From: Rhodospirillales bacterium
GTDB taxonomy: Bacteria; Pseudomonadota; Alphaproteobacteria; Bin95
Direction: 5' to 3'
Length of the DNA stretch: 64,000 nucleotides
Assembly: GCA_038143065.1 (NCBI GenBank)
Contig: JAYQLI010000035.1
Location: 1,024,001 to 1,088,000 of the forward strand
The notes beneath the pieces were generated by a model. The model was not told the origin of the DNA. It made no database searches and saw nothing but the letters and a program-made list of their open reading frames with translations. Position numbers and translations under genes: made by a program. Below are positions 45,536 to 51,393 of the stretch, in pieces; the stretch's first letter is position 1, and each line of letters starts with the position of its first letter.

Positions 45536-48500
45536 CTAAAGACCGCTATCGCCTACGATAGTGAAGGGTGCCCAGAAGATGGGGTGGGCGTAGGAATAGG
45601 CCTCTTTTCCATCAGGGGTTTTAAATGTCCTGTTGTTGATGAGTTCTATGCGAGCCTGGCGTAAGGCTTCAGCACGATTGATAGTGTGTTCATTAGCCTG
45701 CCTGCTAAAGAGGGTCGTCATTAACTCAGTTGCTGCAGAATGAACTGGCCAGTTTGAGACCAGAAGTGAGCGACTGCCGGCATAGAAGAAAGCGCGGCCC
45801 AAACCTGATACTGCTTCCGCACCCTGCCCTTCACCAGATGCTGTATTGCATGCAGAGAGCACGACCCAATCGGCATTGAGTTTAAGACCCAAAACCTCAC
45901 CCATGGTTAAGAGGCCGTCATTCTCCTTCTCCCCTGTAACCTCAGGAGAGGATAACGCCAGGGCTGGCTGGTTCAGTCCGTTAAGATCACCAGGAATGAG
46001 GCCGTGGGTGGCAAATGAGATGACCTTGTACGGGGAGAGATCTTTAGTCCTGACATTCTGCTCACTTGCCTCACTGCCTAAGAATACATCTTGCGCAATC
46101 TTTGCGCCGGTCACCTCAGCAATGGCTGTAATCTCAGGCCGAGTATCAGGGAGGCGGGGAAGCAGCGAAAGAGTAGCACTGTCAGCAGCACGTGTGTTGG
46201 GCGCGCTGCGTAACTTGAACCTGGGAATACCTCTCGTTTCTGTTAGCGATGCTACTTGAATAGCGTCTTCTTTTTTCCTTCTTCTGCCTGAAGGGGATTG
46301 AAGTACGGATCACCAAAACCAACAAAAGGTTTACGCTTAGAGGACGTCGCTTGTGTATCCCGCAGTGTCTCCAAGGACTCTACAGACGGCAGCATCGTCA
46401 CAGCATGGCTCTTAGCCAACCAAGGTACATCTCGGTAGTTGGCAAACAACAGATCACCTTCTGCAGGAAGACGAACTGGCTCCTTCACCAATAGGGAGAA
46501 TGGTAAATGACCAAGTGGTCCGTGCGCCACAACAAAAAGGTTCTTGGCATCCTTCCATCCAATCTGAACAGGTTCCAAAAGCTGCTTGTAGAGCTCGTGC
46601 GCCTCCTTAACATCAAAGTCAGGAATGTCACCCAAGCTGGAGACTTCCCTTGGGGCTAATGCCAGGCGCAACTGATTAACGACTTTCTTTAAAGCCTCTC
46701 GCCCCATATCTACTGATGCAAAGGTAATTTGGCCTGTCTTAGGAACAGCCCAGACATACGTCCGATCACGCGCTGAATGGGTAATCAGGGCAGCCTCATC
46801 TGGCTGCAGGCTCTTCTGCAGACTGTCTACCGAGGAGGTGGTGGGTTCATCAACTTTGCATAAATTGGGAACCGCGCATTGGTTTCATCAACCAACGCTC
46901 GCTTAGCGTCATTCAATGCAGCCAACTGTTTGCGCAGCTCAAAGATGTCATTACTGCCAACTTGTTCTTTGGGCGCTGTCTGCAGATAAACAATCCAATC
47001 TGTCAGATTCAAAACATTTTCATTGATATCTTGCGTTTGGCGAACGAGCTCTGCAAAGTTCAGGGTCTTTAGCCGCAGCCCGCGCAGCAGAGGCGGCAAA
47101 AGCCTTTTGTACCCTACCTGACGGGATCATATTCGAAACTTGGAAGAGTTCCTCACCAGCATCGATACCTATAGCAGACGCTGCCGACCGGCCATCACTT
47201 GAAGACAGAAAGTCCATATAGGCTTCACGGAAAAACTCTGCGCGTCCCTCGCGCCCACCAGCTTTGATTGCACCACCTTGTGTGTATGCCTCTCTAAGGT
47301 AGGGAGCATCACATCCTGAAAGGCTGCCATTGCCTGGTCTGCTTGACCTAAATTATGCAATGCTAACCCTTTTACTAATTTGAGCTCATTCAGGGACTGG
47401 GTATCTTCACTACTGAGTTCAACTCATTGCGATAGCCACGTCGATATCCTGGAGCAGACCAGAATCCCCACCCCCAAAAGCACGGGTCAACAGTAAGTCA
47501 GCATTGGTGCCAAAGAGATCATTATAGCGGGCCTCGTAGCCCTTAAAATCACGACGCAAAAGGGCCATCAGATCTTGGATCTCAGACCATTTTCCTTGAG
47601 CACTCAGGGATTTTAATAATGTCCGCCAGGTCTCAACAAACGGAATACCATCAGGATTAGAGCACTCAGAATAGTGAATATTAATTGCTTGCTTAGCGAT
47701 AAATGCCGCATCGTCATATCGACCTTGCGCATACAAAATCTCTGCAAACGCAGCTACGCTAAGCGGAGAACTATTGGTATCAGGCGTGGCCAAATCCCTA
47801 ACGGCAAGTTCAGCTTCAACATAGCGACCTTGCATCATCAAATTATTAGCTAATCGAGAAAGAATTTCATCACCATCCATCGCCCAGTAAGCACTAAAAC
47901 CTAAGCCATGTTTTACTTTTTCCATACTTGGCGCAGCAGATACTCTTCAGAAACCAAATCCCCCGCATTCGCGCTTTCGACGCCTCAGCTGCATCCATAA
48001 TCATCTGAGCGCGATACCTATTTTTTTCTCGTTCAGGAACGTTCCTGTTGAGTTCAGAGTTGAGAGGCACTTGCGAAATCACTACTAGCGGCGGAGTAAT
48101 TCCCAGCATTCGTGTGCATTCGCCCCAATTGACTCATCAACACTGCTTTCCGGACGGAATTGGAGTTCTGGAGATTTTTCAGAGATGTACGACTTGCCTG
48201 GATGGCTAATTTAAAATTTCCATATTTGAACTGCTGATCGACGTATGAAGTTAATCTTGCAGCCGCATTTTGTCTTTCCGCATTTATAGAAGAGCCCGTA
48301 TCGGCAACGAAACCGTAATTTCATTTTCCCGATATGCCCTCTCCGCTGAACAGTTTTTCACCAAACGCCCTCACAGAACCATCGTTTATTTCTCGATAGG
48401 AAGAAATAGTCCGAGGCAGCTGTTTGGGCTCATACTTCTTAACGTTAGCTGCCAACTTTTTGGCATCATTTAGCGTCATTCGAGGAGGGGTTGAGGTTTG

Positions 48501-48560
48501 ACACGCCGCCAACAAAACAGCGGACGATGCAACTAGCAAAACATTGCGAAATATATTCAT
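45536..48560 (-). CDS. Lipoprotein with helical (TPR-like) repeats and C-terminal CHAT (caspase-like) peptidase; heavily frameshifted (errors or pseudogene)
   Basis: Lipobox LLAAC at the N-terminus and TPR-like QGRY(V/D) helices. CHAT motifs VAHGPLGHLPF, FVGFGDP, LPDTRPEI, FATHG (His), VVLSACNT (Cys) and HPIFWAPF are spread over at least 8 fragments. Confidence 0.85.
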
Positions 48561-48607
48561 CCATATTTCCAACTTCTTTAGCTCTTAATTCACCGTACTT
48601 AAAAAAA

Positions 48608-50708: not shown

Positions 50709-50710
50709 TT

Positions 50711-51393
50711 TTACATACTTAAAATTGTAACAGAAGTTTTTGATTGACTACACTTAAATTTAACTTCTGACACATTACTTTCATTTATTCTAATTTTTAG
50801 TATATATTGTTCTCCAGGATGAAGAAGGGGTACTCAGGAGGAAGTGTGGCGGTCTTCCCAGCTAACCTCAATTTTGTTACCAGCTCACCATCGGCCGAAA
50901 AAAGCGCAACTTCGGAACCAGAAGGCCATCCAGAAGCAGAAGTAACAAATGTTGGCGACGTGCCTATACGACGCATTTTCTTGGGTGCTGCGCGTAATTT
51001 TATAGAACCAATTGCTGTCGTGTCATTCTTTAATACGACACGGTCCACGCAATTTTCTTTGGCTTTATCTAATATCAATCCCTTTTCTAATTTAATTTTA
51101 GATAAACCAATTTGTATCGTTCCACCTTGCACAATAAGGGTTTCACAGGTTTTGTAGTGCATGAAATTTAGCACTGCGTCTTCGGAGAGAGTAATAGTGG
51201 AGCCCGCGGATAACTCTTGGAATGGGAATAATGCCGGATCCACGCTTCCCTCCACGTCAAAAACAAGGACAACTGGTCTTGCTTCAACAGATCGAGGGGA
51301 TAGAAAAGTAGCCGCTGTTGAAACGACTAAACCTGCGAAAAAGAGTTTTTTGAACTCATTAACTCTGAAATTCTTAACAAGGCGGTCAATCAA
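50711..51393 (-). CDS. Secreted hypothetical protein, FecR-like beta-rich N-terminal domain (frameshift near 50830)
   Basis: Signal peptide ending VEA, then VLVFDVEG...LSAGSTITL...LNFMHYKTCE...GG. Restored end reads LLHPGEQYILKI...TILSM*, abutting the cyclase start. The FecR-like label is a by-eye inference. Confidence 0.6.

Follow-up and report, generated by a model that had tools for sequence, protein, structure and literature searches.

In Sinorhizobium meliloti the CHASE2 adenylate/guanylate cyclases CyaD1, CyaD2 and CyaK act together with NsrA, a protein of the outer membrane, and uL2, also a protein, serves as the cue (PMC13001267, PMC7529298). According to the available text of these reports, the connection across the periplasm from NsrA to the cyclase is still missing. 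We describe here a cassette of three genes, encoding a small secreted protein, a CHASE2 class III cyclase and a lipoprotein that combines tetratricopeptide repeats (TPR) with a caspase-like CHAT domain, from a Rhodospirillales bacterium (assembly GCA_038143065.1, contig JAYQLI010000035.1, forward-strand positions 1,024,001 to 1,088,000). This whole stretch of 64,000 nt is called the window in what follows, and all positions are counted from its first letter. The cassette is a real, conserved and experimentally unstudied envelope sensor cassette, a variant of the CHASE2 receptor cyclases that have envelope partners.

The S. meliloti system is the closest studied one. Like the window it has an inner-membrane CHASE2 class III cyclase in an alphaproteobacterium, with a cyclic AMP (cAMP) output that needs an envelope partner and a protein signal (PMC13001267, PMC7529298). 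The partner and the cue are of another kind, NsrA being an outer-membrane beta-barrel of ~1,200 aa and uL2 a ribosomal protein; in their available parts the two papers mention neither a small two-domain secreted protein nor a caspase-like protease. Magnetotactic bacteria have an mtxA cluster, in which the gene for the secreted protein MtxA is followed by that for a CHASE2 adenylate cyclase, and deletion of mtxA gave no phenotype according to the accessible portion of the report (PMC4439547). As in the window, the gene just upstream of the CHASE2 cyclase codes for a signal-peptide protein with a fibronectin type III (FN3)/immunoglobulin (Ig)-like domain, whereas MtxA is ~313 aa long and ends in a TPR-like helical domain (PMC4439547). 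Finally, a single protein of Trichodesmium erythraeum IMS101 joins a metacaspase to CHASE2 (PMC3501461, PMC2853523). It represents an independent link of a caspase-fold protease with a CHASE2 sensor. It differs from the window in being one polypeptide, with a caspase domain that its authors predict to be cytoplasmic and, in the text available, with neither a cyclase output nor a small partner.

TPR-CHAT proteases are known from type III-E CRISPR systems (Csx29, in Craspase) and from gasdermin-linked loci; they consist of TPR-like repeats and a CHAT domain with a His/Cys dyad. These enzymes are cytoplasmic and are gated by RNA-guided complexes or phage cues. The window protein has the TPR-like region and the CHAT dyad in common with them; it differs in carrying a lipobox and belonging to an exported clade, and no CRISPR or gasdermin gene lies near the cassette. 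Our literature search found no experimental study of a module of small protein, CHASE2 cyclase and caspase-fold protease, and nothing relevant on periplasmic or lipoprotein CHAT domains. It also found nothing that joins CHASE2 with a CHAT domain, leaving unconfirmed a remark in the preliminary description of the window, made from the letters alone, that such co-occurrence had been noticed before. In the accessible text of the papers found, no direct ligand of any CHASE2 domain was reported.

The three genes are co-oriented on the minus strand, directly downstream of a ribosomal RNA (rrn) operon ending in tRNA-Met(CAT). Their open reading frames (ORFs) are interrupted by single-base breaks, discussed below, and lengths are given after frame restoration. 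The small secreted protein gene (51393, TTG, to 50711, TAA) encodes ~227 aa. The cyclase gene, delimited with Pfam and tblastn, extends from 50708 (TTG) to 48608 (TGA). The TPR-CHAT lipoprotein gene, identified with Pfam, extends from 48560 (ATG) to 45536 (TAG) and encodes ~1,010 aa. On the restored genes the intergenic gaps measure 2 nt and 47 nt, as the preliminary description had given them.

The CHAT model of Pfam (PF12770) matches positions 45536-46309 with E 8.2e-44 and 150.6 bits (cut-off 24), and positions 46252-46884 with E 3.6e-7. TPR families match at E 7e-6 to 1.2e-3, TPR_14 alone exceeding its curated cut-off. The catalytic dyad lies in the motifs FATHG (His at 46004-46006) and LSACNT (Cys at 45848-45850), and all 76 aligned relatives retain both residues; by domain match and dyad the protein is a predicted caspase-like protease. 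Export features were read directly from the sequence, lipoboxes as the pattern [LVI][ASTVI][GAS]C after a hydrophobic signal segment. The restored gene begins with such a lipobox, VLLAAC|QTS, its Cys at 48501-48503 being followed by Gln at +2; the product is thus a predicted lipoprotein, with lipobox and CHAT domain in one gene. An intact relative in genome G025 shares the lipobox (LLTSC|Q). Among 60 N-termini read in the CHAT clade, 29 have a lipobox, 20 of these with Gln at +2, and most of the others have a signal peptide, so the clade as a whole appears to be exported. From the Gln at +2, the window protein is probably anchored in the outer membrane and faces the periplasm.

Two side observations concern this clade. 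One alphaproteobacterial metagenome-assembled genome has four close CHAT paralogue loci (L016, L017, L034 and L080 in our numbering of loci), 59-70% identical to the window fragment. In L017 and L081 the CHAT gene is split into several pieces.

CHASE2 (PF05226) is matched with E 1e-12 by the window fragment and with E 1.1e-23 by the intact cyclase of G025, and Guanylate_cyc (PF00211) with E 2.6e-18. The predicted topology is one transmembrane helix (TM1), a periplasmic CHASE2 domain, three further transmembrane helices and a cytoplasmic cyclase domain. The catalytic residues D, K, D, S, N and R were all located in the window sequence. Among 41 related cyclases both metal-binding Asp, the Asn and the Arg are kept in 41/41, the Thr/Ser likewise in 41/41 and the Lys in 36/41. 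The Lys and Ser/Thr specificity pair makes cAMP the probable product.

The small protein has a signal peptide ending in VEA|RP and no Pfam or NCBIfam match. An exhaustive profile search places it in an unnamed family whose cluster representatives number 1,484 at E <= 1e-3 and 413 at E <= 1e-30; almost all are ~220 aa long. A plain homologue search had recovered a single relative (P0001). The member in Azospirillum is a 'hypothetical protein' at RefSeq. BLASTP gives no alignment between the small proteins of the window and of G025; their kinship is based on phmmer and hidden Markov model (HMM) matches and on their alignment. An AlphaFold2 model from a 114-sequence alignment has a predicted local distance difference test (pLDDT) of 86.4 and a predicted template modelling score of 0.78. 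In this model the signal peptide is followed by an N-terminal beta-domain (residues 25-100), which includes two conserved Cys, and an FN3-like C-terminal beta-domain (130-217); the linker between them (104-123) is modelled at low confidence and contains a near-invariant Arg, R119. Foldseek and VIA searches with two models returned only generic beta-sandwich or FN3-like structures, the best being 5ix9 (Z 7.5 and 6.7) and 3waj (Z 7.6), and a search of PDB sequences with the family profile gave no match at E <= 10.

Two identities were rejected for this protein by HMM. FecR (PF04773) is matched neither by the window protein nor, even at E <= 10, by any of 15 family members, and no FecR chain is among the listed rows of four fold searches. 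The MtxA models PF24045 (DUF7354) and PF22433 (MtxA_IG-like) are likewise matched by none of 15 members at E <= 10. The likeness to MtxA in the ESM Atlas is only 0.77, a lead and no more. DUF7354 is above cut-off in none of 401 genomes of the class, with no MtxA profile for comparison. We regard the mtxA cluster as an analogue, membership of the window family in it being unsupported by HMM.

Much of the preliminary description's account of the proteins thus stands: the CHAT dyad, the cyclase residues, the Pfam domains CHASE2, Guanylate_cyc and CHAT, and the export features of all three products (signal peptide, CHASE2 flanked by transmembrane helices, lipobox), by which all are predicted to face the periplasm. 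Its label 'FecR-like' for the small protein is not supported by the tests made.

Conservation of the cassette was assessed from both of its ends. For the CHAT-centred survey, the CHAT fragment had at least 549 relatives, of which the best 79 loci were examined. The order CHAT, small gene, CHASE2 cyclase occurs in 16 of the 79, and four more have the cyclase nearby (20/79). The survey centred on the small protein is independent of CHAT: of 401 genomes sampled evenly from the class, 43 match the small-protein profile, and 38 loci were retrieved from these. Here the cyclase is the adjacent downstream gene in 26/38 loci and lies within 6 kb in 29/38. TPR-CHAT is adjacent in 7/38. An exported protease of a second caspase-fold family, Peptidase_C14, is found within 6 kb in 11/38 (nine confirmed with Pfam, two by homology); it occurs with WD40 or Sel1 or in a bare form, and its export features are a signal peptide or a lipobox. 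In all, a caspase-fold protease stands beside the pair in 18 of the 38 loci. The conserved core is therefore the small protein with the CHASE2 cyclase, and CHAT is an accessory. The three-gene module of the preliminary description does recur, in 20/79 and 7/38 loci of the two surveys, with the small protein and the cyclase as its constant unit.

At genome level, too, Peptidase_C14 goes with the small protein: it occurs in 31 of the 43 genomes that encode this protein and in 50 of the 358 that do not, counts that relatedness inflates. The exchange of one caspase-fold family for another, unrelated one beside the same pair is hard to explain without a functional link between protease and sensor, and so argues for such a link. 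A third type of accessory exists as well: in L142, L144 and L182 (the last on plasmid pAB510c of Azospirillum sp. B510) the small-protein and cyclase genes are followed by that of a ShlB/FhaC-type outer-membrane transporter and, in L144, next by that of a 1,367-aa protein with a TPS domain, as in two-partner secretion. The assignment comes from Pfam for L144, from the record annotation for Azospirillum and from clustering with L144 for L142.

A different neighbourhood was noticed in Betaproteobacteria (L033, L042, L056, L060, L063, L082, L085 and L087). A CHAT gene of the same exported clade is followed there by one for a secreted Ig-like protein of ~130 aa and then by one for a membrane protein of ~265 aa; the latter begins with a CxxC...CxxC zinc ribbon and has several transmembrane helices. 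Neither of the two has a Pfam family. The layout of protease, small secreted protein and membrane transducer parallels that of the window cassette.

We modelled the complex of the mature small protein with periplasmic CHASE2 residues 30-372 of the G025 cyclase, along with three controls. The interface score ipSAE, which expresses the model's own confidence, is 0.67 (0.65, 0.69 and 0.67 in single runs) against 0.00 for the best control. Of 80 solved complexes 58 attain the mark set for this score, as do 2 of 110 mismatched pairs; both counts are approximate here, where our own alignments were supplied. The pLDDT of the partners is at least 79, and contacts agree between runs to at least 84%. 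The modelled interface comprises residues 24-69 and 96-119 of the small protein and residues 106-199, 281-282 and 327-331 of CHASE2, with modelled contacts at 40-44 and 62-69 of the former and at 121-131 and 155-160 of the latter. It holds the invariant D106 and R181 and the near-invariant G281, G327, V328 and H331 of CHASE2, together with the invariant C67 and the near-invariant C98 and R119 of the small protein, and leaves the FN3-like C-terminal domain free. The pairing of CHASE2 with the small protein that the preliminary description had proposed for modelling is thus favoured, and the model supports docking of the small protein on the CHASE2 domain.

All stop-to-stop ORFs of the cassette are fragmented. 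Breaks were mapped by a frameshift-aware dynamic-programming alignment of intact relatives to the window DNA, which places ~14 single-base breaks in total. One is in the small gene (~50835), three are in the cyclase gene (~49901, ~48828 and ~48722) and ~10 are in the CHAT gene (~48380, 48316, 48056, 47965, 47921, 47424, 47303, 47055, 46832 and 46281). All are 1-nt insertions or deletions (indels), with at most one in-frame stop. Across them the CHAT domain remains 70% identical to relatives. Outside the insert, 58 kb of window sequence carries long uninterrupted ORFs, the breaks being confined to the insert that holds the cassette.

As a check on the breaks, contigs from four runs of one estuary-metagenome study (X1-X4) were aligned to positions 45200-51800, at a depth of 3-7; the runs contain 58-65% of the words of the stretch. 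At or beside predicted sites these contigs have 1-nt changes (46276 +C, 46833 +G, 47959 +C, 48020 +T, 48718 -1 and 48828 -1), mostly in all four runs. The lengths of contig pieces agree with the sites near 49901, 50835, 47424, 47055, 48316 and 48380. In the 32 pieces listed of 409, gap letters number 65 and substituted letters 60, a ratio of about 1:1 that points to read or consensus error rather than to divergence. The protein collection holds an intact copy of the small protein, P0001, that is 92% identical. Because of the compensating contig indels, the gap ratio, the clean 58 kb and this intact copy, we conclude that the breaks are very probably local assembly errors in a low-coverage, possibly strain-variable segment. 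No contig in the four runs joins across the insert, and loose ends at the tRNA belong to the tRNA genes of other organisms.

The cassette lies within an insert of 6.4 kb between repeats of the tRNA-Met 3' end. The rrn operon, on the minus strand, has the order 16S, tRNA-Ile, tRNA-Ala, 23S, 5S and tRNA-Met (anticodon CAT; 51673-51749, minus strand, by ARAGORN and Rfam). A repeat search finds the 3'-terminal 46 nt of this gene at 51672-51717 and again, from the anticodon loop to the 3' end, at 45282-45327, both on the minus strand; the copies are identical at 46/46 nt and lie 6,390 nt apart, the distal one marking the border of the insert. A degenerate third piece (51451-51491, 80% identical to 45304-45344) lies just inside the proximal border. 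Both tRNA 3' pieces are preceded by a homologous segment of ~200 nt: repeat search and alignment show ~250 nt at 51420-51671 (minus strand) to be homologous to 45260-45520. These segments include a perfect 18-nt match (45464-45481 and 51605-51622), which at the distal end belongs to a palindrome of TTTTGCGAATTCGCAAAA type. The third copy and the homologous segments suggest two related integration events or an eroded tandem.

Between the repeats the three genes are the whole cargo, as the preliminary description had said: no other ORF bears a family, and the remaining spacers are only ~200-280 nt long. That description also called the module mobile, which holds in the sense of an insert flanked by a perfect 46-nt tRNA repeat and in that sense only, the ORF list and Pfam searches of the insert containing no integrase or recombinase gene. 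In GC content (0.453) the insert does not stand out from its flanks (0.472 and 0.465). In nine genomes of the same genus the CHAT fragment, used as query, had no match in eight and a 31% identical paralogue in the ninth. This result and the 46-nt repeats are our reasons for treating the region as horizontally acquired, a part of the overall explanation weighed below.

Some further features were noted in and around the insert. GC falls to 0.32 at 50500-50999, covering the junction of the small and cyclase genes and TM1 of the cyclase, against 0.45-0.51 in the remaining insert. Just outside the distal repeat, positions 45077-45195 are 73% identical to a stretch of 119 nt at another place in the same genome (G000:C37:16600-16718); no tRNA gene was found in the locus of that stretch (L103) or in L096 and L097. 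In 4 of 22 module-bearing loci, among 28 loci scanned in all (L018, L024, L044 and L089), a tRNA gene (Leu, Ile, Gln and Ile) lies 120-700 nt downstream of the cyclase, and tRNA-linked insertion of the module may extend beyond the window locus. Two intact ORFs just outside the insert have no Pfam family (42272-43018, plus strand, 248 aa; 43069-44001, plus strand, 310 aa). Beside the 16S gene, a 161-aa ORF (57696-58181, minus strand) aligns to short-chain dehydrogenase models over their C-terminal portion alone (positions 89-236 of 236), as if a gene had been truncated where the rrn operon begins upstream.

With moderate confidence we favour the following explanation as a whole. The region would be an insert of 6.4 kb at the tRNA-Met 3' end, acquired horizontally and lacking an integrase, and would carry a self-contained cassette that links the cell envelope to cAMP, with genes intact in the sampled population and the ~14 breaks as errors of the assembly consensus. 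The small protein would dock on CHASE2 through its N-terminal domain and flexible linker, as a co-receptor or a brake of the sensor. The TPR-CHAT lipoprotein would be an exchangeable accessory feeding proteolytic input to this pair, an input that Peptidase_C14 may supply in other lineages. Its repeat domain would capture a cue or a substrate, and its caspase-like domain would cut the small partner, likeliest at the exposed linker with the near-invariant Arg, or else cut the sensor; the cut would alter the output of the cyclase, probably cAMP. We infer the cleavage step from the co-location of the genes, the shared topology of their products and the preference of orthocaspases, in the available text on them, for cutting after basic residues (PMC6426788). 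In the envelope proteolytic relay of the preliminary description, the periplasm-facing products, the recurrent exported protease and, in the model, the docking of the small protein on CHASE2 hold up; cleavage and trigger stand as inference only. A more specific proposal, that the two-domain secreted protein is the missing ligand or co-receptor of CHASE2 and that exported caspase-fold proteases (TPR-CHAT, Peptidase_C14) switch the receptor by cutting its Arg-bearing linker, we put forward tentatively, as possible and somewhat doubtful.

Several findings weigh against the favoured explanation. In the CHAT clade 59 of 79 loci have no cyclase nearby, many of them on short contigs. At 20 of the 38 small-protein loci there is no caspase-fold protease within 6 kb; given these, the protease is either not obligatory or encoded elsewhere. 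The window order of small gene, cyclase and CHAT is not the usual one of CHAT, small gene and cyclase. The genome-level association of Peptidase_C14 with the small protein is confounded by relatedness and genome size. The four metagenome runs, shallow and from a single study, may be the assembly's own source; 10 indel rows exist beyond those listed, the listed pieces do not reach the site at ~47303, and the restoration of the frames may therefore be incomplete. The insert lacks an integrase, and an empty site was not observed among relatives; in the nearest genome of the genus the contig stops short of the position.

The small protein and the CHASE2 cyclase might form the sensor by themselves, with TPR-CHAT as an independent periplasmic protease, for instance in the turnover or maturation of envelope or secreted proteins, that travels along because envelope genes cluster. 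The scarcity of adjacent CHAT genes at small-protein loci and of cyclases in the CHAT clade would fit this, as would the betaproteobacterial CHAT genes beside those for ~130-aa secreted and zinc-ribbon membrane proteins and the loci that pair the cyclase with a ShlB/TPS system instead. It leaves unaccounted for, however, two unrelated exported caspase-fold families beside the same pair in 18/38 loci, where a rough hand estimate (~3 such genes per 4.5 Mb genome, 12 kb span) puts a chance neighbour below 1%. Moreover 38 of the 43 small-protein genomes have Peptidase_C14 or an adjacent CHAT gene, the latter in 7 of the 12 that are without Peptidase_C14, and a caspase-CHASE2 fusion is on record in the accessible text (PMC3501461, PMC2853523). 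We consider an independent protease unlikely.

That the cassette is dead, its 14 breaks being real mutations in a decaying, stranded island and the intact versions in the reads coming from other strains, appears decidedly improbable. Breaks limited to the island between clean flanks, an integrase lost or never present, a degenerate third att copy that suggests an old and eroded site, low contig depth and some substitutions between contigs and window are in keeping with decay. Neutral decay would, however, favour substitutions and nonsense codons, and the breaks are 1-nt indels with one in-frame stop at most; gap letters (65) are about as frequent as substitutions (60) in the 32 listed pieces, the corrections are shared by contigs of all four runs, and the breaks do not lower the protein-level similarity to relatives, with 70% identity over the CHAT domain. 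An anti-phage defence of Pycsar or caspase-like type, with a cyclic nucleotide as alarm and CHAT as effector or its activator, has very little probability. It is recommended by matches of the cyclase domain to the PADLOC PycC models (best E 5.6e-31), by the strain-variable insert and by the roles of CHAT in type III-E CRISPR and gasdermin defence. The PycC match is nevertheless explained by the common fold of class III cyclases, neither CHAT nor the small protein matches a PADLOC model, the exported protease would be on the opposite side of the membrane from any nucleotide made, and the cyclase is gated by an extracytoplasmic sensor domain, CHASE2. Membership in Pycsar was rejected on this domain architecture and on the lack of a gene for a cyclic nucleotide (cNMP)-binding effector in the insert.

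For the scanning of genomes, the locus illustrates how public reads, aligned to an assembly, can rescue a stretch in which errors have accumulated locally. For CHASE2 receptors, the cassette supplies a candidate partner that is small and widespread and whose modelled contacts fall on conserved residues of CHASE2, and the question of what CHASE2 senses becomes testable by binding, cleavage and a cAMP read-out. If the favoured explanation is true, caspase-like proteases would take a place in extracytoplasmic signalling, beyond the cytoplasmic roles in defence and cell death in which they have been studied so far. On the more specific and more doubtful proposal of a partner cut at its linker, the bacterial envelope would hold a protease-gated second-messenger receptor, moved between genomes as a cassette of three genes.

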